Virus record (IMG/VR): IMGVR_UViG_3300035698_015449
Reading direction: 5' to 3' (one strand)
DNA from: an uncultured virus (IMG/VR IMGVR_UViG_3300035698_015449)
Taxonomy: Duplodnaviria; Heunggongvirae; Uroviricota; Caudoviricetes
DNA length: 64,000 nt
The notes under the pieces are model-generated. The model searched no databases. It was not told where the DNA came from and saw only the letters and a list, made by a program, of their open reading frames with translations. Positions 5,484 to 63,505 of the stretch are shown here, piece after piece. Within the stretch, counting starts at the first letter, position 1, and each line of letters starts with the position of its first letter. The position numbers and the translations under genes were made by a program.

Positions 5484-5540
5484 TTCCCCACTCCTTTTCT
5501 TATCTTATTCATAAGGAGTGGGGAAAACCCTCTAATTAAA

Positions 5541-5678
5541 TTACGACTTAAGGAATTCCCTTTTTCGTCTACGCATGTTGTTGATATAATCTCTTTTTTG
5601 TTTCAAATCACTTAGACGGAAACTATAACCTATCCATAGCTTCCGCCATACCTTCCTAAATAGCCTTTTTATATTCAC
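5541..5678 (-). CDS. Small basic hypothetical protein (45 aa; not in ORF track)
   Basis: GTG start with GGAG SD right after the ligA stop; MNIKRLFRKVWRKLWIGY... Confidence 0.45.
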   Translation of the reverse strand: MNIKRLFRKVWRKLWIGYSFRLSDLKQKRDYINNMRRRKREFLKS

Positions 5679-5685
5679 TACTCTC

Positions 5686-7707
5686 CTACAACAGTTTCAA
5701 AAAGTCCTCTTGCGAGATAACGTCAACTCCTAATGCCTGAGCCTTGTCATACTTACCCTTCATTGTCTCGCCGTCCCATACAAGTGCTGTCAGCTTCTTA
5801 GAAACAGATGATAGCTTACCACTATTGTCCGTCACCATCCCTTCCATCTCTTTGCGAGTAGGACTGTCAAATGATCCTGTGAAGCAGAATGTCTTACCAG
5901 AAAGCTTATCGCTAGCTAACTGTGGAGTCGTTGCGTCAACATAATCGAGCAACTGTTTAATCTCGGGAAGCTGTTCATTCCATCCGTCAAAGAATCCCTG
6001 TGCTTTCTTACCTGCAAACCCTGATATCTTTTCAATGTCCTTCGCTGTAAGATCAGAGATCTCGTCAACGCTTGGGGCAATGGCTACAATGTCAGCCGCA
6101 GTACGTCCAACCCTACCGATACCAAGAGCTTCGATGAACTTGGGCAATGGTACTTCCTTTACATCACCAAGAGCCTTCAAAATATTCTTGTAAGACTTCT
6201 CACCAATGACTTCCTTGATCTTTGCGTATTTCCTGAAGGGGTGTTCTGTCTTACGGTCATTGTCAAGCATGTAATACATTTCAGGAAGCGTCTCAATGAT
6301 AGCCCGACCATCCCATGAAAGGAAGTCAGGATCAGTCAGTTTGGCTATTGTCCCGCCTCCGATGCCTTTGATTCCGATCTTCTTGCACCAGTGGTCAATC
6401 TTCTTAATCAACTGAGCAATACAATTTATGTTCTCGCAAACGAGTTCGACTTTCTTACCCTTGTCATTTTTCGTCCAAACAACAGGCTCACCGCAAGATG
6501 GACAAACGTCAGGGATTTCAATGTCCTGCGTTCCATTCTGCTTAACCTTAATAATCTGAGGAATAATGTCGCCTTTCTTAGCGATAATAACCTTGGCCCC
6601 AATTTTGATTGCATCTTTAACGATCAATGCACCATAGTTATGAAGCGATGCCTTTGTAATCATTGCCCCACCAAGCTCAACAGGCTTAAGTATCGCAACA
6701 GGAGTCAATGTTCCTGTTCGACCAGTGGCTTTGATAACATCAACTACAATGGTCTCTTTCTCTTCGGGAGGGAATTTAACGGCTCGGTTTGATTTAGGCT
6801 TACGTCCGCCTGCCGTTGATCCCATGGACTGAGCATCATTAATGTCATTGAGTTTGACAACTACACCATCAATGTCATAAGGAAGATTGTCTCGGTCAAT
6901 TCCGTCCATGTAACGACCCACAGCCTTAATGATCTGATCGAAAGTTAAAGTCTTTTTGGTACGACGAGTGGAATCCATAAGCGTTTGGAATCCCATGCGG
7001 ACAAGGAATTGATTCTTTTCAACTTCTGTGTCAAAATCCTTTTGAAGAACTTCGTATCCGATGAATTCTAGATCACGCTCTTTCGTTACTAAGGGGTCAA
7101 GCTGATTCAAAGATCCAGCCGCAAAATTCCTTGGGTTTTTATATCCGTCAGGTAAAACGGAGTTATGCCATTTTTTGTAGAAAAGCTGACGGTCAACGTA
7201 ACATTCTCCACGAATTTCAACTCGTCCTTTTTCAGGAATAGCGTTAAGAACGCCTTTTATGTACATTGCGTTTTTGGTAACGTCAATGCCTGTCACTCCG
7301 TCTCGCCCTCTTGTCGTTGCTCTGAAGAGTTTCCCACCAACATAAATAAGGCTAAGAGAAAGACCATCAATCTTATGCTGCAATACGAATGAACAAGCCG
7401 TTTTGTATGTAGCAATAAGCCATTTTGCGAATGAAGGAAGGTCTAAAGATTTGCTTAGACTCCCCATAATGATATCATGCTTGACTCTTGCCCCATATAC
7501 ATGCTCATCTGACATGCCACCGACTTCATCAAAAAACGGATTATTCGGCTCAATGCCCTCAAGCTCGTAATATTCCCTATCGTACTCGGCGTCCCCAATT
7601 GGTGAGGTTCCGTTTGTTTCATACAAATCAGCGCAATGACGCATAAATGCAAATCGATCTTTGATTGGCAGTGACTTGTCTACTTTTTTCATCTTCGTTA
7701 CGTCCAT
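5686..7707 (-). CDS. ligA: NAD-dependent DNA ligase
   Basis: KIDGLS adenylation motif, EIRGE, NPRNFAAGSL, DGVVVK, Zn finger, C-terminal BRCT (FCFTGS). Confidence 0.96.
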   Translation of the reverse strand: MDVTKMKKVDKSLPIKDRFAFMRHCADLYETNGTSPIGDAEYDREYYELEGIEPNNPFFDEVGGMSDEHVYGARVKHDIIMGSLSKSLDLPSFAKWLIATYKTACSFVLQHKIDGLSLSLIYVGGKLFRATTRGRDGVTGIDVTKNAMYIKGVLNAIPEKGRVEIRGECYVDRQLFYKKWHNSVLPDGYKNPRNFAAGSLNQLDPLVTKERDLEFIGYEVLQKDFDTEVEKNQFLVRMGFQTLMDSTRRTKKTLTFDQIIKAVGRYMDGIDRDNLPYDIDGVVVKLNDINDAQSMGSTAGGRKPKSNRAVKFPPEEKETIVVDVIKATGRTGTLTPVAILKPVELGGAMITKASLHNYGALIVKDAIKIGAKVIIAKKGDIIPQIIKVKQNGTQDIEIPDVCPSCGEPVVWTKNDKGKKVELVCENINCIAQLIKKIDHWCKKIGIKGIGGGTIAKLTDPDFLSWDGRAIIETLPEMYYMLDNDRKTEHPFRKYAKIKEVIGEKSYKNILKALGDVKEVPLPKFIEALGIGRVGRTAADIVAIAPSVDEISDLTAKDIEKISGFAGKKAQGFFDGWNEQLPEIKQLLDYVDATTPQLASDKLSGKTFCFTGSFDSPTRKEMEGMVTDNSGKLSSVSKKLTALVWDGETMKGKYDKAQALGVDVISQEDFLKLL

Positions 7708-12756: not shown

Positions 12757-13749
12757 CTATATATCTTTTGTTTTCCTTCTTGCATTAAATACTTGTTCGC
12801 AATAATATACAAATAAATCTTCTGACATGTTTCGTTTCATTATGTTAATGTCTCGATGTATCCATTGGACATTATCATGAGAGTATCCCTTGTTACTATC
12901 TATTCGGTCTAAAGATGCTGTATTTATACCGTGATTTTTTGTGTAATCTGAAACCATATCTATATCTAATCCAGATAAAGCGCACTTTTTATTCTGTTGT
13001 AGAAATAAATTCCATGCATCTTCTATAGTAATAGAAACCACAAGATTTCGTTTTTTCGCCCCTCTAACTACAGTTGACCAATATCTTCCACTTAATTTCC
13101 CAACCCCTTTCCAATTAACATTGTGTCTATGGCATCCGCAAGAAGTAGTCGCTTTGTGAATTAAAGAGGATCTTATAACCTCAACAGTATTTCCACATTC
13201 ACATTGGCATAACCATTTAGCTGCGGTATTATCACTACTATTATGGACTTTTTTTATTACCGTTAATTTCCCATATTTTTCACTAACCATATCTATAAGA
13301 TTATGACCACCAGCATGCCCTTTCGGTTTCATTTGTATTTCAAACTTTAGAATCCAAGATCTAACCGCATCGTAACTGACATCATATTTTTCGGCTATGT
13401 CGTCTATTCTTTCATTGTTTAAAACGTACATATTATATAGTTCGACTTTAGTTGGTTTTATTTTTTTTTTCCACAATCCATTCCTTTTTAATGCTTCCAC
13501 AACACATGCGCAACTTACATCAAACATATCTCCTATTTTTCGAGTAGACATTCCCCTGTTTTTATATAGGTCTTTTAAAGTCTTAAGATCAGTAAATGGA
13601 GGATTCCCTTTTCTTGGAATACCGTATTTTCTTAATTTAACGATAACCGCATGTCCTTTAACTCCATACATTGCTCCTATTTCAGTAGTTGACTTGCCAT
13701 TTATTACATACAAATTATACAAATCGTCCTTATTAATTTTTAATTTCAT
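12757..13749 (-). CDS. HNH-type homing endonuclease with repeated N-terminal HTH modules
   Basis: GKLTVI...WLCQCECG...SCGC; KCALSG...SLDRIDSNKGY..DNVQWIH..IN.MK. Confidence 0.85.
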   Translation of the reverse strand: MKLKINKDDLYNLYVINGKSTTEIGAMYGVKGHAVIVKLRKYGIPRKGNPPFTDLKTLKDLYKNRGMSTRKIGDMFDVSCACVVEALKRNGLWKKKIKPTKVELYNMYVLNNERIDDIAEKYDVSYDAVRSWILKFEIQMKPKGHAGGHNLIDMVSEKYGKLTVIKKVHNSSDNTAAKWLCQCECGNTVEVIRSSLIHKATTSCGCHRHNVNWKGVGKLSGRYWSTVVRGAKKRNLVVSITIEDAWNLFLQQNKKCALSGLDIDMVSDYTKNHGINTASLDRIDSNKGYSHDNVQWIHRDINIMKRNMSEDLFVYYCEQVFNARRKTKDI

Positions 13750-17381: not shown

Positions 17382-19232
17382 TCATACTTTCATCCACTTA
17401 GGAAGACTTGTTTTCCCCGAAGGGTCTAACTCAGGGATCAACGCCAATCTTGAAATAGCTTTCTCATGATATTTCTCTGACATTTCAAACCCGATATAGT
17501 GTCGTCCCATCTTCTTTGCTACAGCACAAGTCGTTCCCGCTCCTGAAAATGTATCGAGAACAACATCACCCTCATAAGTCAATTGATCAATTAAACGTCT
17601 TGGCAACTCTTCAGGAAAACAATTACCCGTTATGAATACTCTACCGTTTCTTCTTGCGACAAACGTTCCATTCCCTTCGACCATAGGACACCACATTTTT
17701 CCGTCATAACTTACTGTTTTCAGTATACTACCTTTTGAGTTTCTTAATAGTTTGTGTTTCTTTCGAGTTAGTTCAACATACCCGCATCCTGATTTTTGGT
17801 CTTTTGTTGGCGAAAAATAAGCATCATAACCTAAAACGACCCCAATACCTTGAACCGACTTCAAAACTTCATTATCTTTTTGAACGACAATTATGTTACC
17901 TTTACTTCTCTTTGAACCATCTGCACCCGCAAGACCCTGTAAAAAAGCTTCCAACAAATCGTGTGGCCATGCTAAGATATTGTCAGGGATTTTTTTAAGC
18001 GGGTAAGAACATAAGCTCTTGATAGCATCCCTTATACGCCCTTTTATGCTAAATGCGATATGAGAAGATGTTTTAGAATTATCATAAGTGTGTTTTCGAA
18101 CCCTTTCATTTTCTTTGAAATCTGCATCTACATTAAATAACCTATTCCTTAAATCATCAGATTTCTCTTTATTTGCACTTAATGATTGGTCAATAACAAC
18201 TGTATAAACTTTTCCGTTTTTATCTTTTTTATAATGCCCATCTCCTATAAAAAATCCAATTATATATGCCATATCTTTGCTACATACGATCTCTCCATTA
18301 AAAAGAGCCTTGTCCTTCAATAATAATGGATCATTAGACACCCATTTTGCCGAACATGGGATTTTATGATGCCCTTTTAAATCTCTAGCTAGTGTAATTT
18401 CTATATTTTTGTCTTTCTTTAAACACCGATGTATTGGACTTAGCAACATATTTAAGTGTCGTCCATTAACCGATATCGCCTCTCCTGTGTGATCATAAAC
18501 TGTAGTGTAAACGTTCTCCTTCCATTCCAAACCATTTTTTTCTATATTAAAAGACGCAACTAAATCTCCAATTTGAATTTCATTATACTTTTTCCATCCA
18601 CCCATTGTTAAACATTCTGTAGCGACATCGACACAAGCAGGATGATCGTACTTTTTCATCATTGAGGTTTCGGGTGGGAACTTCCACATTGCCCTTGAAT
18701 TACGAATGAAATTCTCTCCTGATACTGTAATCTTAGACTTGTCTCCCGCATGTATGGTTGTACCTTTTGCGACAACTATGATGAACTCAAACTGTGTTGG
18801 AAAGGACGGGCAAGAAGGAGACTGCCAAGATCCCCAAGCGGTAGATGACCCAATTTGATTCTTGTCCCAAATGATAGTGGTCATCATTTTGAATCGTTCT
18901 TCTAGATCCATCGACAAAAGCATATGTGTAAAATCTACATGCGTTGGAACAGAACCGTTTGCTCCATCCCCGATGTTAACGCATAACCTGCCCCCTGTCT
19001 TGAGGACTCTGTGGCATTCAGTGAATAGTTTTCCTATCCATTCGAGATACTCATCGTATGGCATGTTGTCATCATACGTATCATATTTGTCTTTCTTGTG
19101 CTTGTTGCCAATTCCTAATGACACATTATACGGAGGACTAGTAACTATCAGGTCTACCTCATTATCAGGTATTTTGTGTATAAGATCTTCCCACTTGTCG
19201 TGATATACATTGTCTTTAACGATATCTTTCAT
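17382..19232 (-). CDS. N4-C/N6-A DNA methyltransferase (beta class) with a cis-intein
   Basis: TSPPY, HPA|intein|CFPEEL, VLDTFSGAGTT. Confidence 0.92.
   Translation of the reverse strand: MKDIVKDNVYHDKWEDLIHKIPDNEVDLIVTSPPYNVSLGIGNKHKKDKYDTYDDNMPYDEYLEWIGKLFTECHRVLKTGGRLCVNIGDGANGSVPTHVDFTHMLLSMDLEERFKMMTTIIWDKNQIGSSTAWGSWQSPSCPSFPTQFEFIIVVAKGTTIHAGDKSKITVSGENFIRNSRAMWKFPPETSMMKKYDHPACVDVATECLTMGGWKKYNEIQIGDLVASFNIEKNGLEWKENVYTTVYDHTGEAISVNGRHLNMLLSPIHRCLKKDKNIEITLARDLKGHHKIPCSAKWVSNDPLLLKDKALFNGEIVCSKDMAYIIGFFIGDGHYKKDKNGKVYTVVIDQSLSANKEKSDDLRNRLFNVDADFKENERVRKHTYDNSKTSSHIAFSIKGRIRDAIKSLCSYPLKKIPDNILAWPHDLLEAFLQGLAGADGSKRSKGNIIVVQKDNEVLKSVQGIGVVLGYDAYFSPTKDQKSGCGYVELTRKKHKLLRNSKGSILKTVSYDGKMWCPMVEGNGTFVARRNGRVFITGNCFPEELPRRLIDQLTYEGDVVLDTFSGAGTTCAVAKKMGRHYIGFEMSEKYHEKAISRLALIPELDPSGKTSLPKWMKV
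17622..18635 (-). mobile_element. Contiguous intein (338 aa) with LAGLIDADG endonuclease domain
   Basis: Starts CVDVATE, ends ITGN followed by C(+1); IIGFFIGDG and FLQGLAGADG motifs. Confidence 0.9.
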
Positions 19233-21197: not shown

Positions 21198-21394
21198 ATC
21201 TTACTCTCCATTTCTTCTCTCAACGGACACCAAAAATAAGCGCACCATCTGCAAACTGAATCGGGCGTTTTACCTATAGCCTTTAGTTCCTCTTTCCATC
21301 CATCATGCCAACAATACTCTTCTCCCTTCCAAAAAGATCCTGAAAAATGCTCACAAGATTCTTTGAGCGATTCCCATTGCTCTTCGGATATCAT
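21194..21394 (-). CDS. Small Cys-rich hypothetical protein
   Basis: Coupled ORF. Confidence 0.5.
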   Translation of the reverse strand: MISEEQWESLKESCEHFSGSFWKGEEYCWHDGWKEELKAIGKTPDSVCRWCAYFWCPLREEMESKI

Positions 21395-21993
21395 ATTCTA
21401 CTCTCTTCTTTTGCTCCCGATCCTATATCAATGAGCTTCGCTTTCTTTCGAAATGTATTTAAGTCTACTGCCCCTGAATAAGACATAGAAGAACGAATGC
21501 AGTCTTTAGCTTTCCTAAGTAAGAACTTCACCTTCCCTTTGAATGGAACGATCTTAATAACGCCTTCTACAAATGAATGGTCTCTGCCGTTTTCGACTTT
21601 TCGTTCTCCGCTTGCAGACCCGCCATAGACTTTGTAGAACTCTTCCTTGTCGTTCTGATACACATGTCCCGGCGTTTCAGATGTACCTGCAATAAATGAA
21701 CCAACCATAACTGCATCGGCAAATTTAAGGGCTTTTGCAATGTCACCTTTGTATTTTATTCCGCCGTCAGCAATAATAGAAAGAAAGGGACATTGATGTC
21801 TGATATCTCGCAATGCCTTTAACTGAGGGACTCCAACTCCAGTGTTCTTCCTAGTTTCACAAACAGAGTTATGTACCGCTATATTATCCCCTACCGTATA
21901 AGAATGATCATCTTCTACGTGAATATCGTATACTTCACCATCAAATTCTAATTCTTCAATCGTTGCTATTTCTTTCAATTGGTACTTTTTCAT
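21391..21993 (-). CDS. guaB: IMP dehydrogenase/GMP reductase C-terminal part, preceded by a 42-aa split-intein C-half
   Basis: MKKYQLKEI...VYDIHVEDDHSY...VHN|SVCETR.NTGVGVPQ, IIADGGI, AVMVGS, FVEGV; start 21993 with AGGGAG SD. Confidence 0.92.
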   Translation of the reverse strand: MKKYQLKEIATIEELEFDGEVYDIHVEDDHSYTVGDNIAVHNSVCETRKNTGVGVPQLKALRDIRHQCPFLSIIADGGIKYKGDIAKALKFADAVMVGSFIAGTSETPGHVYQNDKEEFYKVYGGSASGERKVENGRDHSFVEGVIKIVPFKGKVKFLLRKAKDCIRSSMSYSGAVDLNTFRKKAKLIDIGSGAKEESRI

Positions 21994-22055
21994 TACATTC
22001 TCCCTATCATAATACAATACAGATTAACTTAACCAATATTGTGAGTCCCTTCTAT

Positions 22056-22937
22056 TCATTCATTTATTTCTAGCAATAGATAATCTTTAGACAACTCGTC
22101 AGCCCGAATCCATTCAGCGTACTCATTCATGTTATCATCTGTAACAATATCTCTGTACTTTTTGTTTAGAACGTAGAACTCATGATTAGCAGTACATTTA
22201 ATATCATTGACTTGGATCAGTTTCTCATCCTCTTTGCGAATCATAGTGCCAATTACATTTTTGTATCGACCCCTATGGGTAAGGACTTCTTCACCGTCTT
22301 GAATTTCTTCAATTGGCTTTTTACCGCTTTTGGTCTGAACAAGGGTTCCTGCAACGAAGCAACCCGGCCCGATCCCAACTTTGACAATATCCGCTCCCCA
22401 TTCTGCAAGGTCAGATGCTCCCTTAGCAGTTGCAACGTTACCTGCGATAATACAGATCTTATCTCCATATTCAGACCTCATGTAACTGATCATATTCTTT
22501 ACAAGAACATGATGACCATGAGCTACGTCAACCGTGAACAATCTAGCTCCAGCATCATACAGGGCGATAAGTCTTTTCTTGTCTTCTTGTTGAACGCCTA
22601 TAGAAACGCCTACACAATATTCAGGAGACATCCATTTTTTCCTATAAACTATATCAGACTTGTCAAACTCTTCACCTATAGCACTATCGGCTTCTTTAAA
22701 CTCATCAACCGCTTCCTTAATGCTCCCAAACCTATGTAAGATTCCAAGACCGCCGTGACTAGCCATTTCAATAGCCATTTTTGGGCCTGTAATGTCTTTC
22801 ATGTTGGCTGAGATTAAAGGCAGTTCAAGAAGGAACTTGCCCATACTTGTAGTTGTACTAATTTCGCTACGACTCTCTATTTCTGAGTACTGAGGTTCGA
22901 ACATTACATCATTAAACGTTTCTCCAGTGCTTGCCAT
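22056..22937 (-). CDS. guaB: IMP dehydrogenase/GMP reductase N-terminal part, followed by a 101-aa split-intein N-half
   Basis: [44 protein letters not shown]...CTANHEFYV; no CBS domains. Confidence 0.92.
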
Positions 22938-34953: not shown

Positions 34954-35832
34954 TTAGTTTGATTCCATTTTGTATTTCTTTTCCTTAACATTAAAATATA
35001 CTCCTTTGTTCAATAATAATATAGATTTCTGTTGCAAAGAGTGATGCAGTTTCGTGTGGTTGCTTTTTGTGGTTAAAAATAAATTATCCAAACTATTATC
35101 ACAACTATTGCCATTAATGTGATGTACGCATTCGTTCTGATACAATAGCCTTCCCATAGCCTTCTCAACTATTAGTACGTGTCTCTTTTTCCATCTAGTT
35201 TTCCATTCCCCATTTTGTTTGAAACTAAAACATATTGCTTCCATTTTTCTAGATCTAACGGTCTTAATATAGATTCTTTGACTATAAATACAATCTTCGG
35301 GAGACAAGAATAGCGTTTTTGTAGAAACCTTTTTCCCGAAGTCATATGTTGATAGCGTTGGGTAGAAATTCAATTCTCCATCATGTAACAATTCATATCC
35401 ACATAACTCTAAAGAATTATGCAGTTTCCCATGCTCATTACGACTTGAACAAACAAATAAATTATCTATATTGTTATTTAGTTTATTCAGATCTATGTGA
35501 TGTACTAATTCCCCCTTCTTTAACAACCTACCTAACTGCTTTTCTGCAACAAAAATATGTTCTAGATCTCTTCTTCCGTTTACAGTTATTCGCTTATAAC
35601 CACCATTTGTTATGCCGTGTTTCCAATGACCATGGTTTTCACCACATGGTATAGATCGGTATTTACAAGAATTAGCGCAATGACAGCAAAGATCTATAGA
35701 TCTTCCTCTAACCTTCCTCCCCATTTTTATAGTTGCAATAGATGCAGTGCCTTCTTCCCCGCATTCATCACAAATTCTTATAATTACTTCTGCGCATTTA
35801 AGACCTTCAATCGTTTTTAAATTTTTTATCAT
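34954..35832 (-). CDS. Double HNH homing endonuclease
   Basis: EH..VAEKQLGR.L...ELVHHID.NK.NN.IDNL and HV..VEKAMGR...VHHING...DN.LDNL; start moved to 35832. Confidence 0.88.
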   Translation of the reverse strand: MIKNLKTIEGLKCAEVIIRICDECGEEGTASIATIKMGRKVRGRSIDLCCHCANSCKYRSIPCGENHGHWKHGITNGGYKRITVNGRRDLEHIFVAEKQLGRLLKKGELVHHIDLNKLNNNIDNLFVCSSRNEHGKLHNSLELCGYELLHDGELNFYPTLSTYDFGKKVSTKTLFLSPEDCIYSQRIYIKTVRSRKMEAICFSFKQNGEWKTRWKKRHVLIVEKAMGRLLYQNECVHHINGNSCDNSLDNLFLTTKSNHTKLHHSLQQKSILLLNKGVYFNVKEKKYKMESN

Positions 35833-35898
35833 ATTGTATCTCCATTTTGGATCTATATCTATTAATTCCAAAATGAAAATATAAATTCCTCTTTAAAT

Positions 35899-42860: not shown

Positions 42861-44026
42861 TCAAATTCTTTTTGAATTGACATACTTAATTTCCCTTTTA
42901 CCCAATTTTCTTTGTATAAACAAAAAATTGGACTTCAATTCATTCTCTACATAATGCTTTTTAATGACTATTCCCCTTAAGTAATTATACCATCTTTTAA
43001 AGTTTTTTTGAAAACTAGTAACTTCAACATATGTATCACTATCCTCTAAGTAAAAATCAAACCTGTAATTACCTAATTTATTGTTTCCTTGACTATATCG
43101 ACCATCGTACTTGAAATCAATACCTTGTTCTTGATACTTTAAATAATAATATGCTTCCACTAACGATAAAAGCTTGGTTCCATCGACAAGAATAATTGAA
43201 TTAGAACACGAAGGACAATTATTGTACCCTCTAATTCTATCATATACCGTTGAATCCCATAAACAACCACACTTCTTACATTTCCATTGTATTTTGAACT
43301 TACTGCCATTAGTAATTTTGCTCAAATTAACATGAGGATTGTACGCATAATTAAACTCATCACAAATTTCTGGGTCTGTATTTTTGACAGAATTCTCAAT
43401 GGGAATGATACGTGGCGAATTGGGACATCTTGATCCATTTCTGAAACGACTACTAGGGGAAGATTCCCATGTAAATTTACAAATATTACATTTCCAATGC
43501 ACTTTACGATTACTCTGCTGGCATAGTTCTTTAGGATCTATTACGTTTTTTGTCTTATCCCAAATACCCATGAGGTCTTTATGATTTGCCACACAATTTG
43601 TATCGTTTGGACTAAGATTGCGTTGCCTAATTTTTTCGTTTTTACATTTCGGGCAACCGTGTCCAATGCTTCTATTTTTAATTTGAGCAAGCCATATATG
43701 ACCACACTTCTTACATTTCCATGAAACCCTCTTGGCACTTCCCGGGGTTAAATCAAAAATAGTAAGAGGTTGATTTAATTCAACAACCCATTCTTTTGAT
43801 AATTCTTCATTTAGAATCCCTATAGAACGACACTTTAGACATTTGCCTAGCCCTTGACACCTTTGATAGGTTCTAGCTTCCCATTTATTGCCGCATATAC
43901 TACAAATCCACCCCGGTTTTTATAATCGCTAGTTAATATTTCCTCTGGGATATAGGGATTGTTGTACTCATAATTCCACTCCTTTGATAACTTTATCGAA
44001 TATTCAGACAATTTTTTAACTTTCAT
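42861..44026 (-). pseudogene. Zn-ribbon-repeat endonuclease (DUF4379-like repeats plus PD-(D/E)XK-like domain), frameshifted at an A5 run (43917-43921)
   Basis: ATG 44026 with GGGAGG SD; four W.C..C...W...R....C units; YRFDFYL...YVEV; one extra A restores a single ORF of about 388 aa. Confidence 0.75.
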
Positions 44027-55969: not shown

Positions 55970-56608
55970 TTAGACATCACCAAAAAGGTCGTCATCTTCA
56001 TCATCAAAGATGCTGTCTAATTCGGCCTTTTTAACATCGGGTTCGGTCTTTTCGACCTTTTCCTCGACTTTAGTTTCTACTGCTTCAGCTTTCTCAGCCT
56101 CTTCAGTCACATCATCAGCATTTTCAAGCCTTTCTGACTTCGGCATTTCAGCCTCTTCAAAAAGGTCTTCCTCTTCCTCAGCAGGTACAACAGGAGCAGG
56201 TACAACAGGAGCCTCTACTTTGGTCTCCACAACTACTTCTGCCAAATTCTTAGCGTTAGTGTCTTTGTTGTCTTTTTGCTCTGCCGCATTACGAAGGTTC
56301 TCGTTAGCTGCCTTGTTCGCTATATTGGGAACAGGGCCATTCTCAAGCCATTCGGGGATTGCTTTTTGAATCGCTTCTTCAATTTCCTGAGCCGACTCAA
56401 CACCCTTGCCAAGCTTCTCAGGAATGGCTTTCATGCTGCGAATCATGCTTGCAAGTAAGTCATCTCTTAAAGAGTCTTCCTTTGTGATCAGATCTTCTTG
56501 ACCTTCATATTCAATTTGTTCTTCAGCGTACTTTGTCAACTCAATATGCTGATAGTTACCAACATTAATACGTAAACTAATACACTCTGCTATTTTTCGG
56601 TTTGCCAT
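55970..56608 (-). CDS. Hypothetical protein with acidic tail (DDEDDDLFGDV)
   Basis: AGGAG SD, TGTATAAT promoter. Confidence 0.65.
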   Translation of the reverse strand: MANRKIAECISLRINVGNYQHIELTKYAEEQIEYEGQEDLITKEDSLRDDLLASMIRSMKAIPEKLGKGVESAQEIEEAIQKAIPEWLENGPVPNIANKAANENLRNAAEQKDNKDTNAKNLAEVVVETKVEAPVVPAPVVPAEEEEDLFEEAEMPKSERLENADDVTEEAEKAEAVETKVEEKVEKTEPDVKKAELDSIFDDEDDDLFGDV

Positions 56609-56663
56609 ATCTCGCTCCTGTTTTTTATTGTCAATCTCTGGAGACATTATACATTAAACTCCG

Positions 56664-57374
56664 TTAGATTTTAATTCCTTTCCCGCCTAGTTTGGAAAAG
56701 ATATTGTTTCCACCGTACTGCTCCATTCTCTCGTCTTGTTTCTTCTTCTGTTTTTTCTCTTTGTCAACAAGAGCCTTCACTGTAGTATATTTATCCAACA
56801 AAGTCTCTTTACCAATCTTCCAACTCTCCTGCATACAATCAGCTTCAACCAAAGATTTAAACACTTTGCTATGAACCTTTCTTGTGTCAACTGTATGTAA
56901 GAAGTCTCTCAAGTCCGCAAACGGTTGATTATCTACAATACTCTGAACAGCTTTTTCTCCTACGCCACCAATAATCGTCAAAGGTGTCCTTATTCCATCC
57001 CTCTCTTTGCCCGATTTATCATCAACGAATGTAGCTATTTTATATTTAGTACCGCTTTTGTTAATACATGGCCCGTTAATAATAAGCCCCATACGTCTTG
57101 ATTCGCTCTGATAGGACTCAAGCTTAATCCCCTTATCGCTGTTATTGATCTCAGACGACAAAAGATTACACATGTACTCTAAAGGATAGTAAACTTTGAG
57201 CCAAGCCGTTTGATAAGCCAACATAGCATAAGCTGCGCTGTGAGAGTTTTTCGTGTAAAGCCCTCTGCCGCAAGGACTTATGATTTTGTAATTATGTTGC
57301 TCGCCTGCCATAGTCACGTTATATGTTGTTTGCTTCCCTAATGACCTAATAGATTTTACTCTGCACTTTTTCAT
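56664..57374 (-). CDS. dnaE: DNA polymerase III alpha, piece 3 of 3: 43-aa IntC plus C-extein (HhH region)
   Basis: MKKCRVKSIRSLGKQTTYNV...YTKN|SHSAAYAMLAYQTAWLKVYYP, IGGVGEKAV. Confidence 0.92.
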   Translation of the reverse strand: MKKCRVKSIRSLGKQTTYNVTMAGEQHNYKIISPCGRGLYTKNSHSAAYAMLAYQTAWLKVYYPLEYMCNLLSSEINNSDKGIKLESYQSESRRMGLIINGPCINKSGTKYKIATFVDDKSGKERDGIRTPLTIIGGVGEKAVQSIVDNQPFADLRDFLHTVDTRKVHSKVFKSLVEADCMQESWKIGKETLLDKYTTVKALVDKEKKQKKKQDERMEQYGGNNIFSKLGGKGIKI

Positions 57375-58461
57375 ATTTTCTCCTTAAATAAAAATCGTTC
57401 TTATCATTATACATCCAACAAAACGCTTTGCAAATCTGTTTCTCCCCTCCAAGAGTTCTTAGATTATAGATATATCCTGTTTTTGTTTTTTGTCCCGTTA
57501 CCGACCAAACAAACTGGTTTATGCTTGTCAAGTCAGTCAAGAAATCTTTACTAGCTGAAGTAAGAGATAGCCAAGGATATCCATTCTTCTTTAAACCAAC
57601 CGTTCCATCCCCATCAATAAGTCCCCTGAAAAATGAACTTAAAAACTCATCAGGAACACATCCATTATACCTCAATATCTTCGTCTTACGCTTTACTACT
57701 CCTAACTTTTTTAAATCTTCTGCAATCTTTCGGTTATGAACGGTTAAACGTATCATATCTTTAGCGTTTGAAAATCCAACTTTAGTTCTTTTATGCGAAC
57801 AGTCTATCTTTTGAACAGGATGCGTTTTAGATGCGCCTATAAGATCCCCTATCTTTTCAAGTATATATCCGTCTTCTTCTGTTAGTTGTATTTCAAATCC
57901 ATTATAGTCTTTGATAATATTACCATCTGTCATTATCAGACCAAGAACGTATGCTTTTTCGTGACTATTAATTTTCTCAAAAAATGATTCATCGTAATGA
58001 GTTTGTATCTTTGGTTCTCTTCGTTCAATTCCATATTTATCTAGGATTTGATATACGGTTTCCTTCCTCTTGTATCCTATTGAATCAACTATCTGCTTTC
58101 CTGTTCTACCTTTTTCATAAAGTTGTATTACTTTTTGTTCTAATTGATCTGACCGCTTACTATTCCATGCTACTCGTTTCGCTTGCTTTACTTTGTATTT
58201 CTTCCTTATGCGGCAAAGGCCATAGTAATTCACGCCCGTTTGTTCTGAGACTTTGCATAAAGAAAGCCCCTTTGTATACGAGATATGGCACAGCATTTGA
58301 TAATACCGCTCTCTTACCGCTTGCCAATTGTTTTCCTGAATCACTCTCCGTATTACTCGCTCCGTTAAATCCGTTTGGCGTTCTATCTCCTTCATTTCCT
58401 TTTTTTGGAAGAACAATTTGCGGATCTTCTTTTGTAATTGTTTCGGTATCGGTTGTTTCAT
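57346..58461 (-). CDS. Free-standing LAGLIDADG homing endonuclease with N-terminal HTH modules
   Basis: KAYVLGLIMTDG and FFRGLIDGDG; GGGAGG SD. Confidence 0.9.
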   Translation of the reverse strand: MKQPIPKQLQKKIRKLFFQKKEMKEIERQTDLTERVIRRVIQENNWQAVRERYYQMLCHISYTKGLSLCKVSEQTGVNYYGLCRIRKKYKVKQAKRVAWNSKRSDQLEQKVIQLYEKGRTGKQIVDSIGYKRKETVYQILDKYGIERREPKIQTHYDESFFEKINSHEKAYVLGLIMTDGNIIKDYNGFEIQLTEEDGYILEKIGDLIGASKTHPVQKIDCSHKRTKVGFSNAKDMIRLTVHNRKIAEDLKKLGVVKRKTKILRYNGCVPDEFLSSFFRGLIDGDGTVGLKKNGYPWLSLTSASKDFLTDLTSINQFVWSVTGQKTKTGYIYNLRTLGGEKQICKAFCWMYNDKNDFYLRRKYEKVQSKIY

Positions 58462-58930
58462 TTTCGGCCTCCCATATTTTATGCTGCTGCTTATGGGATA
58501 CTTCTGTAAGATACTGCGAATCTCCTTCTAATTTTATGATTTTATTTTTTAGTTCATTATTACGATTACCTATCATATACCCCACCAATACAGAAAAAAT
58601 ACATGTAATAAAAACAGATATGATTTTTATTTTTATTTCACTCCATATTACATCATCCATGTGAAGTTTTTTGTTATCTAGATTGCATTGTTGAATTTCT
58701 ATATTGTCTCCCTCTATACTCCCATGATTCGCATACGTTTGAGCATTCTCACTTACACTTTCAGCGCCATATGACACAGCAGTAGATAAATCTTTTTCTC
58801 GATCAATAAATGGTTCGGTAGGGTAATCAATAAATTTTACGAAAAGGAATTTTAATGGGTTGTTGAACCTTGTCCCAAATTTATCTTTAGGATAACTAAT
58901 ATATTTCATCAAGAACGGCTTAATCTTCAT
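58160..58930 (-). CDS. Possible single-TM passenger protein inside the dnaE break; 3' end overlaps the LAGLIDADG gene
   Basis: ATG overlaps the end of dnaE piece 2; hydrophobic IISVFITCIFSVLVGYMIG. Confidence 0.4.
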   Translation of the reverse strand: MKIKPFLMKYISYPKDKFGTRFNNPLKFLFVKFIDYPTEPFIDREKDLSTAVSYGAESVSENAQTYANHGSIEGDNIEIQQCNLDNKKLHMDDVIWSEIKIKIISVFITCIFSVLVGYMIGNRNNELKNKIIKLEGDSQYLTEVSHKQQHKIWEAENETTDTETITKEDPQIVLPKKGNEGDRTPNGFNGASNTESDSGKQLASGKRAVLSNAVPYLVYKGAFFMQSLRTNGRELLWPLPHKEEIQSKASETSSME

Positions 58931-60611
58931 ACAAAATCTCCAATTCTTCATGCACAATGTCCTGCAAAGTATGTGCTTCCCCGTCAGAACAAATAAACTT
59001 ATGATCCATTGTGCATTTTATCACAACACCATTATCAAGTTGAACTTCAAATAGCTCTCTCTCGCCAACTTCAAAAACATCTACCACGACATCTTCTACG
59101 ATTTCCCCATCTTTAAATGACTTAAGAATTATCTCAGGTGTTTCAACTTCCTCACCCGCTCCAAATTCCTTCCATCCTTGATAATTAAAGAACCATTTCT
59201 CTAAGTCTTCTAATCTATAGACTTTCCCATCCTTTTCGTTTAGGACTTCGGTATCTCCAGAGAGACATTTGTTGAATCCATACCCACCGAAGTATTCGAT
59301 CTGTTCAAATATCGCTTTTGCAGTTCTTTCGTCAATATCACATTCGGCCTTACAACCCTCAATGAACAGAGTGTCAAGCTTTTCTTTCTTGATCAACTCA
59401 GGTTTCTTCTTACCCACAACCTTTCTCAACCAGTCTGCCTGACCTAGAGTAAATCCTGCGAGCTTCTGTACAACCTTCATGATGTTCTCTTGGAAAACCA
59501 TGATCCCGTAAGTCTCATCCAAAACCTCTCCCATCTTAGGATGCAAATATTCGATTTTCTTACGGCCATGCTTGTAGTCACTGTAAAGGTCGTGAACTCC
59601 TGCACCTAATGGGCCGGGACGATACAAAGCATTACATACAACCAAATCATTGAACGTATCAACATGGATGTTCTTTAACAATTTAGAGATGCCATGAGCT
59701 TCAAACTGGAATATACCCCTATTGTCCATATTTTTGTATTTACCATTAAATAAATCAAATACCTTAGGATCATCAGGCTCAAGTACATCAACGTCTATAT
59801 ACGTCCCGTAACGGCTCTTAATCATCTGAACAGTATCCTCTATTACCGTCAGAGTCTTCAAAGCCAACATATCGAACTTGAGCAAACCAAGATCATCAAC
59901 CTCTTCCATGACAAACTGAGAGCAGATAGCGCCCTTAGACTCCCTCAAAGGAATGTGGTTTACAACAGGCTCTTTACAAATAATGATGCCAGCAGGATGC
60001 ACTCCCGCAGATGATACAGTGTTCTCAACATGTCTTGTCGTATCGAGTAACTTAGGGTTCTTTAACATCTCTCTTCTGAATGACTCATCCTCTTTAAGTG
60101 CTTGTTCAATGGTCATGCCGGGACTATTGGGGATTTGTTTGGCAATGAAGTCCGCCATATCCAAACTCCTTTTTGTCATCTCAACTTTTTTATCAGGGTT
60201 ACGCTTCTTAGCTGCCTGATAAGTCTCCCAATCATTACCAATATCCAACGCTTTAGCCGCATATCTAACCGCAGCCCTTGCTTTGAATTTGTTGTACGTC
60301 CCAATTTTGCAACAATACCCCTCTCCATACTTACGAATGATGTAATCAAAGATCTCATCTCTACGATAGTAATCAAAGTCAATATCTACATCAGGGGGAC
60401 TTACACGCTCAGGGTTGATGAATCTTTCAAAAAGTAAACCGTACTTAATTGGGTCAAGTTTCGTAATACCTAGAACATACAAACACAAACTGCCTGCTCC
60501 AGAATTATGAACTGACAACCCATCTATATTGTATGCGCTCAAATCCTTAACGGTAAGATCATGAACTTTTCCTTCATACTTAGTCTTTTTGATGCTTTTT
60601 ATTTTAGCCAT
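58920..60611 (-). CDS. dnaE: DNA polymerase III alpha, piece 2 of 3: 36-aa IntC, 412-aa catalytic extein, 115-aa IntN
   Basis: MAKIKSIKK...VHN|SGAGSL...FERFINPERVSPPDVDIDF...GLLKFDMLAL...GYGFNK|CLSGDT...CTMDHKF. Confidence 0.95.
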   Translation of the reverse strand: MAKIKSIKKTKYEGKVHDLTVKDLSAYNIDGLSVHNSGAGSLCLYVLGITKLDPIKYGLLFERFINPERVSPPDVDIDFDYYRRDEIFDYIIRKYGEGYCCKIGTYNKFKARAAVRYAAKALDIGNDWETYQAAKKRNPDKKVEMTKRSLDMADFIAKQIPNSPGMTIEQALKEDESFRREMLKNPKLLDTTRHVENTVSSAGVHPAGIIICKEPVVNHIPLRESKGAICSQFVMEEVDDLGLLKFDMLALKTLTVIEDTVQMIKSRYGTYIDVDVLEPDDPKVFDLFNGKYKNMDNRGIFQFEAHGISKLLKNIHVDTFNDLVVCNALYRPGPLGAGVHDLYSDYKHGRKKIEYLHPKMGEVLDETYGIMVFQENIMKVVQKLAGFTLGQADWLRKVVGKKKPELIKKEKLDTLFIEGCKAECDIDERTAKAIFEQIEYFGGYGFNKCLSGDTEVLNEKDGKVYRLEDLEKWFFNYQGWKEFGAGEEVETPEIILKSFKDGEIVEDVVVDVFEVGERELFEVQLDNGVVIKCTMDHKFICSDGEAHTLQDIVHEELEILYED

Positions 60612-61543
60612 GCCTTAATCCTCTTCTTTATTGCGTCAGTTTTTTCATTATTGTAAAATGTTATTTCAGAATAATATCTTTTATAAAATGGTTTAAGATA
60701 AGTTTCTCTTTTTACAAATATACCTAAATCAAACAAATCCTGAAATCCATATACAACATACATTATACCAAACTCCTTTCTTGCTGCTTTAAATTTTTCA
60801 TGGAAGTTGTTATACTCCTTCGACCCTTTAATTTCAACGATTCTTTTTTTATCATTGCTATAGGTAACTATGAAATCAGGATAATACTGCCGTTTTTTAC
60901 CTTTATCGTCTTTATAAGCAATACTCCCCTTATATCTTTCAATCTTTTTTATACTCTTAGAGTCCCAACAAAAACATAGAAAATACAATTCCCAACTACT
61001 ATCAAATCTGATACCTCGTATTGTACCGCTTATAAAAGATTTTGAACATCTTTTTTCTGCATACATCGGATCGGATTTCATTAATTTCAGTTGGGCATCT
61101 CTTTGCTTTTTTAAAACCTCCGGTCTATTTTGCGCTATCAATTGAGCTTTTGAATTACTATCCTTCCATTTGTCAGTATTTGTAGCAAACTTTAGGGAAC
61201 ATTTTTTACAGATAGGTTTGGTTCCACAAATCTTCCTTTTTTGCATAGCTAAAATCTGCATAACACTATCTTTGCCACATTCTTGACATTTAAATTTTAC
61301 TTTCTTTTTAGTTTTTAAAGAATTTATACAAGGTTGTACTAATTTATAATCCCAATATTCATCATTTAGCTTATCCTGCAACTCAACCGGATAGTAATCA
61401 ACTCCGTATTTTCCGCCCCTACTATATTTTTTGTAGCATTTCGGACAAATTGGCTCTGAAGTTTTTTCCCTTCTTCTTTTTAAACATCCTCTTTGAATTT
61501 TAAAATCATTACCACAATCCTGACATTTCATTCTAACACTCAT
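60599..61543 (-). CDS. Free-standing Zn-finger plus TnsA-like PD-(D/E)XK endonuclease
   Basis: CxxC pairs; FDSSWE...YYPDFIVTY...IVEIKG. Confidence 0.78.
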   Translation of the reverse strand: MSVRMKCQDCGNDFKIQRGCLKRRREKTSEPICPKCYKKYSRGGKYGVDYYPVELQDKLNDEYWDYKLVQPCINSLKTKKKVKFKCQECGKDSVMQILAMQKRKICGTKPICKKCSLKFATNTDKWKDSNSKAQLIAQNRPEVLKKQRDAQLKLMKSDPMYAEKRCSKSFISGTIRGIRFDSSWELYFLCFCWDSKSIKKIERYKGSIAYKDDKGKKRQYYPDFIVTYSNDKKRIVEIKGSKEYNNFHEKFKAARKEFGIMYVVYGFQDLFDLGIFVKRETYLKPFYKRYYSEITFYNNEKTDAIKKRIKAWLK

Positions 61544-61628
61544 AAAATAACCTCCTTAACTTTATTAGGTTATATTCTTGATGAATGCCAAAACCTCCTC
61601 CTTTAAACTCCAACTCGTACAACCAACC

Positions 61629-63026
61629 TCAAACGACTCCCTCTCTAATATCAAATATTTCATCATCAGTAGTTAGTTTTCCTGCTTCAACCCATATAAG
61701 GTCTCCTTTGCGATCAATATGAATCTTATGATCGCTTGTGCATGAAAACCGCCTTCCGTCTTCTAACTCTATTTCTATTAATTCCTCATCTACATCATAT
61801 TCTAAAACATTTAAAACATCATGATACTTTCCATCATAAGATAAAACTTTATCATTTATACAAACATCTTTAATATTTTTTATTCCGTCCTTACACTCAA
61901 CCTTAGACTCTGGTGTAAAACACCCCCTACCAACACCAACTCGAATTCCTTGCTGATTAGCGTAGTTAATAATATCCCAAAGCGTAAGGAAGTATTTGAC
62001 AAACCCACAACCAATAATCAAGCTCATCTCCATCTTGATACGTTCTCTGTATTCAGGTTTATCTAGAAACCCCTTCAATTGCATCCCGTCTTTCACTAAA
62101 GCCTTAAGATACATGTCACCGCTAGTAAACCCTTGTGGAACCTTGAAAGTAGGCAACAGGTCTTCAGATGGTGTTAATATCGCTCCCTTCTCTACCTTTT
62201 CTGCAATCTCAACCGTATTGCTCATCATTTCGGGAGCGCTCTTGTACAACTCTTGCATCTCTTCATACGGCTTAAGGTAGAATTCATTTCCGTTGAAAGT
62301 GAAACGTTTAGGATTTTTTATATGGTTATGGGTTTGCATGGCAAGCATGACATCATGATACGGCGCATCAGTTCGGTTGGCATAATGAGCGTCATTGGTA
62401 CAAACGGTTTTGATGTCGAGCTTCTTAGCCAACATATACATTTGCTTGGCTAGTTTTCGTTCACGGTCTTCTTGATCCTTGGATGCCTCAAAATATTTGT
62501 GCATCATGATCTCAATGTAAAAATCGTCCCCGAATAACTCTTTATGCTCATTTGCAAAAGTAATAGCCCCGCTCTCATCGCCCTGCCATAGCTTTGCAGG
62601 GAACTCTCCTATGCAACAAGCGCTTAGACAGATCAAGCCCTCATGATACTTCTTAAGTAATTCAAAATCAATTCTAGGCTTTCTATACTTACCTTCAATC
62701 TCGGCAATGGTTGAAAGCTGCATTAGGTTCTTAACCCCGGTTCGGTTCTTAGCTAAAAGCACCAAATGGTATCTTGGATCTTTGGGATCTCTAGATTTGT
62801 GGTCAGGACAAGTGTAAACTTCATTGCCCAATATTGGCTTAACGTCTTTAGCTAAACAAGTCTTCTGAAAGTTATACCATCCCCCGCAAGTTCCGTGATC
62901 TGTTATTGCTAAGGAATGAGAACCATTAGCTATACAGGCATCTACCATTTCCGTTGGTGATGAAAGCCCGTCTAATGCGCTGTAGTAACTATGATTGTGT
63001 AAATTAACGAATCTGTCTTCTGTCAT
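61629..63026 (-). CDS. dnaE: DNA polymerase III alpha, piece 1 of 3: 368-aa PHP-domain extein plus 97-aa IntN
   Basis: LHNHSYYSALDG, AITDHG, HLVLLAKN, TNDAHY, VGVGRG|CFTPES...CTSDHKI. Confidence 0.95.
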   Translation of the reverse strand: MTEDRFVNLHNHSYYSALDGLSSPTEMVDACIANGSHSLAITDHGTCGGWYNFQKTCLAKDVKPILGNEVYTCPDHKSRDPKDPRYHLVLLAKNRTGVKNLMQLSTIAEIEGKYRKPRIDFELLKKYHEGLICLSACCIGEFPAKLWQGDESGAITFANEHKELFGDDFYIEIMMHKYFEASKDQEDRERKLAKQMYMLAKKLDIKTVCTNDAHYANRTDAPYHDVMLAMQTHNHIKNPKRFTFNGNEFYLKPYEEMQELYKSAPEMMSNTVEIAEKVEKGAILTPSEDLLPTFKVPQGFTSGDMYLKALVKDGMQLKGFLDKPEYRERIKMEMSLIIGCGFVKYFLTLWDIINYANQQGIRVGVGRGCFTPESKVECKDGIKNIKDVCINDKVLSYDGKYHDVLNVLEYDVDEELIEIELEDGRRFSCTSDHKIHIDRKGDLIWVEAGKLTTDDEIFDIREGVV

Positions 63027-63505
63027 GCGTCTCCCTGATCGAATATTTTGGTTTCATAAGACTTCACCCTTGCATATATTACCTGATGTATGAAATGCAA
63101 TAGCTTATCTACGAATTCAACCCAATTGTAACTATCGAAGTCAATATCCCTTATGACCTCATTCTCTTCAAAATTCAAACCCGACATATGTGAGTAGTGA
63201 GCAGTTTTGACAGTAATGTTTGAACCATCAGTATATACGTAAACGGACTTGTCATATCCCTTTTTAGTCAACTTGAAAGAAAAACAGGAGACATCTCCGT
63301 TCATCTCAGGCCCTTCTATTACATGGTCAATAACACCTGATTCTACGAAACATTTGACGATAGTTGCGATCCTCGTAGCCATACGCTTTACGACTAACTG
63401 ATGATCTGATGTGATTTTGTACGGGATTTGTCCAACAGCTTCTACAAAGTTTTTATGCGTCGAATCTACCCTCTCTTTGATAAATGGAATGTTAAGCATG
63501 CTCAT
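63023..63505 (-). CDS. Hypothetical protein
   Basis: ATGA-coupled on both sides. Confidence 0.6.
   Translation of the reverse strand: MSMLNIPFIKERVDSTHKNFVEAVGQIPYKITSDHQLVVKRMATRIATIVKCFVESGVIDHVIEGPEMNGDVSCFSFKLTKKGYDKSVYVYTDGSNITVKTAHYSHMSGLNFEENEVIRDIDFDSYNWVEFVDKLLHFIHQVIYARVKSYETKIFDQGDA

Follow-up and report, generated by a model that had tools for sequence, protein, structure and literature searches.

A phage replicative DnaE polymerase encoded in three pieces, with two different split inteins proposed to join them

How can a phage make a working replicative polymerase when the gene for it is broken at two places? The question is raised by IMG/VR record IMGVR_UViG_3300035698_015449, a stretch of 64,000 nucleotides (nt), hereafter the window, from an uncultured salt-lake phage. 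The replicative DNA polymerase DnaE is encoded there by three separate open reading frames (ORFs) of 465, 563 and 236 amino acids (aa), spread over positions 56664–63026 of the minus strand, on which all window genes and gene parts given with coordinates below also lie. At each break, the upstream piece ends in an N-terminal intein half (IntN) and the downstream piece starts with a C-terminal half (IntC); the two sites and their inteins are referred to as a and b. The locus is read here as a double-fractured polymerase gene, the three fragments of which are trans-spliced into one DnaE by two different split inteins. This reading is given a probability of about 0.8, both the splicing and the orthogonality of the two pairs being inferred from the sequence.

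Piece 1 (61629–63026, 465 aa) consists of extein 1 (ext1, 368 aa, 61923–63026) and the 97-aa IntN-a, with the junction GVGRG|CFTPES. Piece 2 (58920–60611, 563 aa) has IntC-a (36 aa, ending SVHN), extein 2 (ext2, 412 aa, 59268–60503), which runs from SGAGS to GYGFNK, and the 115-aa IntN-b, which begins with CLSGDT. Piece 3 (56664–57374, 236 aa) is made of IntC-b (43 aa, ending YTKN) and extein 3 (ext3, 193 aa, 56664–57245 including the TAA stop), which starts with SHSAAY. These coordinates and lengths (368+97, 36+412+115, 43+193) had been given in a preliminary description of the locus, and the ORF list and the sequence agree with all of them. Ext1 holds the PHP domain and the start of the Pol III alpha palm, ext2 the remaining palm and the fingers, and ext3 the end of the fingers and the helix-hairpin-helix domain. 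In Pfam searches, piece 1 matched PHP (2.5e-46) and DNA_pol3_alpha (7.8e-13, profile positions 2–66), piece 2 matched DNA_pol3_alpha (5.4e-53) and its finger domain (7.9e-52), and piece 3 matched HHH_6 (3.5e-16). The Hint-domain check suggested in the preliminary description also gave intein profiles: Intein_splicing passed the cutoff in piece 2 (2.2e-9, 37.8 bits), and Hint in piece 1 (9.2e-7, 29.1 bits) was slightly below its cutoff of 29.7.

When the intein halves are removed, the motifs GRGSGAGS and FNKSH are restored and a polymerase of 973 aa (summed mass 110.9 kDa) is obtained, as had been claimed. The three exteins adjoin without a missing or an added residue in intact homologues of about 975 aa; in one of 977 aa (P0009), ext1 aligns to residues 6–372, ext2 to 373–784 and ext3 to 785–977. 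Ext1 is 50–76% identical to the N-terminal 365–385 residues of intact homologues, and ext3 is 39–78% identical to the C-terminal ~190 residues. The solved Escherichia coli Pol III alpha (2hnh) was matched by ext2 at 3.5e-75, with aligned segments 364–449 and 456–758, and ext3 was aligned to its residues 759–788, the first residue being S759. According to these alignments, site a corresponds to G363|S364 of the E. coli protein, within GRG|SGAGS, and site b to K758|S759, within GFNK|SHS, so that ext1 ends at G363 and ext2 spans S364–K758. Of the active-site motifs of DnaE, the two that are most conserved are the ones cut.

Do the flanking segments have what an intein needs? In both inteins the halves are on separate polypeptides with the canonical split between blocks B and F: stops follow the 97 and 115 IntN residues, and the 36- and 43-aa IntC halves start at new ATG codons with ribosome-binding sites. 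IntN-a (61629–61922 with its TGA stop, net charge −12) starts with Cys1 and has the block B sequence SCTSDH, and its part of piece 1 is recognized as Hint/Intein_splicing sequence in Pfam. IntC-a (60504–60611, net charge +3) reads MAKIKSI...GKVHDLTV...GLSVHN and is followed by the +1 Ser. Intein a thus carries the class-1 residues, namely Cys1, block B TxxH and a C-terminal His-Asn with a Ser nucleophile. Among IntN-a homologues, Cys1 after GRG and the block B TxxH were retained in 15 of 15, all with the pattern CT(S/L/N/K/D/E)(D/N)H, and C369, T430 and H433 (piece 1 numbering) were invariant. The ending SVHN|S was found in all 28 IntC-a sequences, with H35, N36 and S37 invariant. The solved structures closest to IntN-a were the gp41-1 intein (1.3e-5) and NrdJ-1 (0.07), and, when compared by eye only, it also resembles the IMPDH-1 split intein in the Dassa 2009 supplement (PMC2677866). 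Intein a is classed as gp41-1/IMPDH-1-like.

In Methanobacterium virus PhiF1 (MK994522.1, L063 3461–8255), the DnaE gene has a contiguous intein of ~357 aa exactly at site a, where locus position 5000 is the last of ext1 and 5001 the first of the intein; the N-terminal part of this intein is 37% identical to IntN-a. The PhiF1 DnaE is annotated as two overlapping coding sequences (ORF58/ORF57), and the frame appears to change near locus positions 4735–4788. When IntN-a was compared with sequenced phages, 17 records matched and none had a split DnaE; the matches in Salicola phage SCTP-2 and in Lak phages were rejected as split DnaE, being located in other genes.

IntN-b (58920–59267 with its TAA stop, net charge −21) starts with CLSGDT and has the block B sequence KCTMDHKF. 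IntC-b (57246–57374, net charge +8) reads MKKCRVKSIRSLGKQTTYNVTM...QHNY...YTKN and is followed by the +1 Ser that aligns to E. coli S759. C449, T534 and H537 of IntN-b (piece 2 numbering) were invariant in 14 of 14 rows, the terminal Asn and the following Ser of IntC-b were present in nine of nine sequences, and N43 was invariant in eight rows. The best solved relatives of IntN-b were the cyanobacterial DnaE split inteins (7qil, 1.4e-8; Npu and Ssp entries, 2e-7 to 4e-6), and intein b is related to them. IntC-b alone was too short to score against solved structures; by eye only, it looks allelic to the DnaE-3 IntC (LGKQQTY...QSN|S) in the Dassa 2009 supplement (PMC2677866). IntN-b had no match among sequenced phages. 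A contiguous mini-intein allele of b is present in one related protein of 788 aa (L048/P0032); it would leave ~150 residues in FNKSH, and the protein would not be functional without splicing. The two inteins were thus placed in different lineages, gp41-1-like for a and cyanobacterial-DnaE-like for b, in line with the earlier claim that they are two different inteins.

Each break is occupied by a gene of its own. The first gap begins with a spacer of 85 nt (61544–61628), which has AAGGAGG upstream of the next start codon and a weak hairpin over this ribosome-binding site; tested as a counterpart of the hairpin in Dassa 2009, it was not significant (fold z-score −1.0). The spacer is followed by the free-standing homing endonuclease gene a (HEG-a, 314 aa, 60599–61543), the product of which combines a TnsA-like PD-(D/E)xK nuclease domain (Pfam Tn7_TnsA-like_N, 4.2e-9) with a pair of CxxC...CxxC zinc ribbons. 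E185, P222-D223 and E237-x-K239 were invariant in an alignment of 15 homologues. In the AlphaFold model (mean confidence score pLDDT 84.8), the best folds were TnsA (9bw1_M, 4e-4; 1t0f and 1f1z, 1.5e-2), followed by other PD-(D/E)xK nucleases. No Vsr fold was present among the 43 HEG-a Foldseek matches listed (ranks up to 50), and HEG-a is placed outside the Vsr-like family described in Dassa 2009. Its sequence or profile gave only zinc-finger noise against solved structures. A homologue stands at the same place in 19 of the 24 related DnaE loci described below, and the last 13 nt of HEG-a overlap the start of piece 2.

In the second gap, HEG-b (371 aa, 57346–58461) is a free-standing gene of the LAGLIDADG family, with an N-terminal helix-turn-helix-like region and the motifs LGLIMTDGNI and RGLIDGDGTV. 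It matched Pfam LAGLIDADG_3 (PF14528; 1.1e-11, 45.3 bits against a cutoff of 22.5) and phrog_4645, annotated as endonuclease (5.4e-46). With the domain and two motifs, as for a monomeric enzyme, it is a predicted LAGLIDADG endonuclease. The last 29 nt of HEG-b overlap the start of piece 3. Homologues were found at the same place in six loci (L033, L034, L042, L052, L054 and L055). Between IntN-b and HEG-b there is also an ORF of 265 aa (58160–58957; probable ATG near 58928) with one hydrophobic segment, the last ~100 codons of which run, in another frame, into the beginning of HEG-b. It had no Pfam or PHROG match. A homologue was detected only in L054 (27% identity over 172 aa, 3e-16), and none in the gaps of L034, L042 and L052; the corresponding gap in the other three-piece loci is only 70–170 nt.

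Is the arrangement peculiar to this one phage? Related loci were collected by scanning for the back-translated IntC-a/extein junction YN[IV]xGLSVHNS. The scan gave 29 loci, one in IMG/VR and 28 in metagenome contigs, of which 24 are DnaE loci and five are not (L036, L039, L051, L058 and L061). The pattern had no match in 185,579 GTDB species genomes, and no near-identical DNA was found among sequenced phages. The complete three-ORF layout was present in seven of the 24 DnaE loci (L034, L042, L047, L052, L054, L055 and L059), the exteins of which are 47–86% identical to those of the window; L052 and L055 are near-copies of one another. Site a alone was occupied in six loci (L041, L043, L046, L049, L056 and L057), L048 has site a split and a contiguous mini-intein at site b, L044 stops inside IntN-b, and five loci end before site b (L035, L045, L050, L053 and L060). 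Both endonuclease genes were present in five of the seven three-piece loci. In L047, only the last ~47 codons of HEG-b remain (5413–5553). L059 has neither endonuclease, and the ~20-residue tail of its IntN-a (6330–6400) resembles internal and C-terminal bits of HEG-a and looks like a fused HEG-a remnant. L059 and L047 are footprints of endonuclease loss.

A second survey covered the best 120 database homologues of piece 2, of which the 114 with a complete ext2 were used (P0017, P0028, P0046, P0078, P0112 and P0116 were left out). Intact alleles were the most numerous (69); 21 homologues ended in IntN-b only, 10 started with IntC-a only, 12 were middle pieces of the form IntC-a-ext2-IntN-b, and two had IntC-a together with a contiguous intein b. 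Intact, a-only, b-only and a+b alleles, for which a survey of related phages had been proposed at the outset, were thus all found. A third, contiguous intein of ~390 aa was observed after ext2 residue 340 in three closely related loci (L001 7021–8190, L052 8051–9220 and L055 4262–5431). L001 has the third intein only, in a single ORF of 1370 aa, and L052 and L055 have it in addition to both split inteins; in P0017 and P0028, the third intein matched Pfam LAGLIDADG_3.

Four of the DnaE loci belong to a distant clade with further breaks (L033, L037, L038 and L045). The exteins of L033 are only 28–34% identical to those of the window, and its IntC-a (72%), HEG-a (45%) and IntN-a (45%) are more similar than that, as expected of elements moving between polymerase genes. 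L033 was rejected as a clean distant example, since both cassettes are present but there is an extra break. In this clade, the ORF after IntC-a closes at ~33–49 extein residues (L033 4203–4675, L037 51–490, L038 6685–7110 and L045 815–1252). The short ORF covers positions ~59–105 of the Pfam palm profile; the next ORF has a leader of ~60–70 aa and repeats the palm segment, so that profile positions 68–105 are duplicated. The break does not appear to be bridged by an intein, and the L033 DnaE would be encoded in four ORFs.

To follow the distribution of the two elements, a quick maximum-likelihood tree was built from 115 ext2 rows, that of the window among them. The presence of intein a needed at least 15 changes (shuffled mean 22.8), that of intein b at least 26 (shuffled mean 31.1) and the a+b state at least nine, of which seven are forced by well-supported branches. 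Since 36 of the 110 inner branches lack support, such counts are inflated and lean upward. The smallest well-supported clade with the window (14 rows; support of 100 in the Shimodaira-Hasegawa-like approximate likelihood ratio test, SH-aLRT) holds five intact, three a-only, two b-only and four a+b alleles, and these four allele states within one clade indicate that both elements are mobile. The association of a with b on the tree was a trend only (4.8 changes the same way against 0.3 the opposite way, 11 pairs, median p 0.125).

The following course of events is proposed. The five or six co-oriented genes would be transcribed together; co-transcription is suggested because no minus-strand terminator-like site was found in the locus. 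Translation may be coupled, the IntC-bearing pieces starting at overlaps with the endonuclease stops. The acidic IntN-a would then capture the basic IntC-a, and the acidic IntN-b the basic IntC-b, and each pair would fold into a Hint domain and carry out the class-1 reaction, with a Cys1 thioester, transfer to the +1 Ser and Asn cyclization. The two splicing reactions, in either order, would yield the scarless polymerase. The endonucleases may spread the cassettes by homing into empty alleles, and their later loss would leave bare split inteins. The seamless junctions, the invariant splicing residues, the constraint on the pieces and the recurrence of the layout all support the description of the gene as a natural three-fragment DnaE with two different split inteins.

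The most prosaic alternative is that the three pieces are an artefact or a gene in decay, through mis-assembly, sequencing errors, pseudogene formation, joining at the RNA level or recoded stops. The window does come from a metagenomic assembly of low depth, with contigs at depth 2–5. Salt-lake Logan contigs were identical to it over the piece-1 stop (61579–61927), the piece-2 stop (58837–59024) and the HEG-b/piece-3 overlap (57112–57519), but they possibly derive from the source sample, and their support for the assembly is weak. The strong argument against an artefact is the recurrence of the same layout in seven other loci of different metagenomes. In the frame of the pieces, moreover, 47 in-frame stops were counted in the first gap and 56 in the second, 103 in total and of all three kinds, each gap has a complete and conserved endonuclease gene, the pieces are under constraint, and no intron or other Rfam match was obtained at E ≤ 1 across 56400–63300. 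That the three pieces share one frame was considered as a sign of readthrough and rejected in view of the 103 stops; the frames differ in relatives, so the common frame is due to chance. An artefact is therefore barely credible, and the three-piece layout is not an assembly error, an intron or a case of recoding. Promoter-like sites were not above chance (27 against 21.4 ± 4.8). As a separate observation, one run X2 contig joins 57381 to 58989 and so lacks the final 22 codons of IntN-b together with the 265-aa ORF and HEG-b, the shorter side of this joint being only 30 letters, and several contigs have loose ends at 57347–57401 and 61649–61663. Alleles without an endonuclease, or with other contents in the gap, may coexist in the same lake and account for the joint and the loose ends.

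The trans-splicing reading also has to be weighed against those in which the inteins do less, and some results count against it. No public RNA runs containing the locus were listed. The penultimate His was missing from intein b in all nine sequences (K, M, L, A, G, K, L, K and L; Lys in the window), and Asn or Ser precedes VTM in its block F, at a position that is Asp in many inteins; with these departures, intein b might be slow, conditional or inactive. Intein a alone would then splice, and b would dock piece 3 to give a two-chain enzyme of ext1-ext2 and ext3. This is unlikely, as b retains all of its splicing residues (Cys1, Thr and His of block B, terminal Asn, +1 Ser), and the contiguous b allele would need splicing to function. 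A penultimate His is not universal among active inteins, and the cyanobacterial DnaE inteins, the nearest solved relatives of b, splice well and likewise lack it. The deviation lowers the textbook status of intein b but not its intein-like working. Split intein halves bind tightly, and one could imagine that neither intein splices and that the halves are dimerization handles of a three-chain polymerase. This is highly improbable: both cuts lie inside active-site motifs, where ~130–160 extra residues would be hard to tolerate, and the nucleophiles and the Asn are invariant though the exteins are only 50–60% identical, while decay would be expected in dead remnants. Median Nei-Gojobori ratios of nonsynonymous to synonymous divergence (dN/dS) were 0.18–0.22 for the four intein halves and 0.17–0.21 for the three exteins; these are only rough values, since the median dS of 1.3–2.2 is near saturation and 1–35 of the 15–45 pairs per part were unusable, with only 10 of 45 usable for ext1. 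They suggest that the intein halves evolve under constraint roughly like that on the exteins. This roughness, like the inflation of the change counts above, also weighs on the negative side.

The trans-splicing reading further demands that the two pairs do not cross-react, because the middle piece has the form IntC-extein-IntN. Could they be incompletely orthogonal, so that some of the middle piece cyclizes or concatenates, either wastefully or as a regulatory sink? Charge alone cannot separate the pairs, which is a further difficulty: in each of them, an acidic IntN faces a basic IntC. With the same polarity in both pairs, specificity must come from shape and sequence. IntC-a and IntC-b are also alike in a basic stretch at their N termini, M-x-K-[I/C]-[K/R]-[S/V]-[I/K], and a third related split intein (in IMPDH) is encoded in the same window. 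On the other hand, the intein halves are highly divergent and come from different lineages, which makes orthogonality plausible, and the a+b combination recurs and persists; such leakage is judged to be very unlikely. The global alignment of IntN-a and IntN-b was gap-ridden (29 identities in 76 aligned columns). In co-folding of IntN-a, IntN-b and IntC-a, the score with IntC-a as partner was 0.55, and that of the control with chain 2 replaced was 0.72, a comparison that weighs on neither side.

The surroundings of the locus are those of a large-phage replication module, with RecA, primase, SbcCD, topoisomerase, clamp loader, a clamp-like protein, NAD ligase and tail tube genes in the window, and relatives were found on contigs of 135–186 kb. 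The IMPDH gene is in two ORFs (21391–22937). The first, of 293 aa, ends in an IntN of ~101 aa beginning with CFVAGT; the second follows after a gap of 38 nt, with no endonuclease gene between them, and starts with an IntC of ~42 aa ending in AVHN|S. This split intein looks like the IMPDH-1 type in Dassa 2009, and its halves are 30% and 39% identical to those of DnaE intein a, of which it is a relative. An N6/N4 DNA methylase of 616 aa (17382–19232) has an apparent contiguous LAGLIDADG intein of ~345 aa (DHPA|CVDV...ITGN|CFPEELP); its Pfam matches were N6_N4_Mtase in two stretches and LAGLIDADG_3. Possible further selfish genes encode an HNH_3 protein of 305 aa (34954–35871), a DUF4379 treble-clef zinc-finger protein of 243 aa (42861–43592) and an HTH_28/HTH_23 protein of 330 aa (12757–13749). 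In total, the window has four inteins, and at least two more of its genes are nuclease-like.

As seen in this window, the replication genes of large uncultured phages are heavily colonized. If both splicing reactions occur, the phage would hold a naturally co-selected orthogonal pair of split inteins and, in the same genome, a third one. A bolder extension is given a little better than even odds. It holds that three mutually orthogonal split-intein pairs (two in DnaE and one in IMPDH, the latter a relative of a) operate in one infected cell, that its sole replicative polymerase is made only by two obligatory trans-splicings via an IntC-extein-IntN intermediate, that the a+b combination was assembled independently several times by homing, and that non-cross-reacting pairs have already been selected in nature. 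The alleles would also form a natural series at two sites of one essential gene (empty, contiguous, and split with or without endonuclease), on which the splitting of inteins and the gain and loss of endonucleases could be studied. Intein b would be related to the cyanobacterial DnaE intein, displaced by four residues and with the native Ser as its nucleophile. Under the bolder extension, the pairs would be usable directly as a co-evolved toolkit for tandem ligation, and the evolution of intein orthogonality would be testable on natural alleles.

How does the locus compare with known systems? The closest are the fractured genes of Dassa 2009 (PMC2677866), which are also from phage-like metagenomic loci. 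In them, the N-terminal part with its IntN is followed by a short spacer and a free-standing endonuclease gene of the same orientation, the 3' end of which is overlapped by the IntC. The same arrangement was found in both gaps here (overlaps of 13 and 29 nt) and in relatives. DnaE is among the fractured hosts there, with three loci at three different sites. In contrast to them, two fractures lie in one gene here, which gives a middle product of the form IntC-extein-IntN and calls for two rounds of trans-splicing. Its endonucleases are of the TnsA-like PD-(D/E)xK and LAGLIDADG types and not of the GIY-YIG or Vsr-like types described there, and the spacers are 85 nt and 458 nt (the latter with the extra ORF) instead of 27–51 nt.

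With the cyanobacterial split DnaE intein (Ssp, Npu; 1zd7, 4kl5, 2keq and 7qil), the closest set of solved relatives, intein b shares the host protein, the canonical split, an IntN of ~100–115 aa, and an acidic IntN with a basic IntC. Unlike it, intein b is inserted after FNK with a native +1 Ser, and its halves lie close together in a phage, on either side of an endonuclease gene, and not at distant loci. The preliminary description had stated that cyanobacterial DnaE is split at FNK|S/C. This is imprecise as to the site: the wild-type C-extein junction of Ssp DnaE reads CFNK (PMC2664965), and the Ssp intein sits before it, which puts the cyanobacterial site four residues upstream of site b.

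Intein a resembles gp41-1, NrdJ-1 and IMPDH-1 (6qaz and 8ubs; PMC7090010) in its short IntC of 36 aa, its HN|S end and its fractured-gene origin, and it differs from them in its host and site (DnaE G363|S364) and in sharing that host protein with another split intein. Members of the gp41-1/IMPDH-1 group are among the 15 mutually orthogonal split inteins reported in E. coli by Pinto et al. 2020 (PMC7090010). The DnaE of PhiF1 has the same site a, but its intein is contiguous and there is no second intein. Engineered tandem trans-splicing, a technique in frequent use and described, for example, by Humberg et al. 2025 (PMC12707363), likewise uses three segments with a middle one flanked by the IntC of one pair and the IntN of another and requires orthogonality, but it is man-made. 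No natural three-piece gene joined by two split inteins was found in the literature searched, outside of which most subscription journals lie; a partial hint is contained in Dassa 2009. There is precedent for fractured genes, for split DnaE inteins and for engineered tandem trans-splicing. Set beside them, the locus is real and recurrent and of practical interest for intein engineers, and it is not a new principle.

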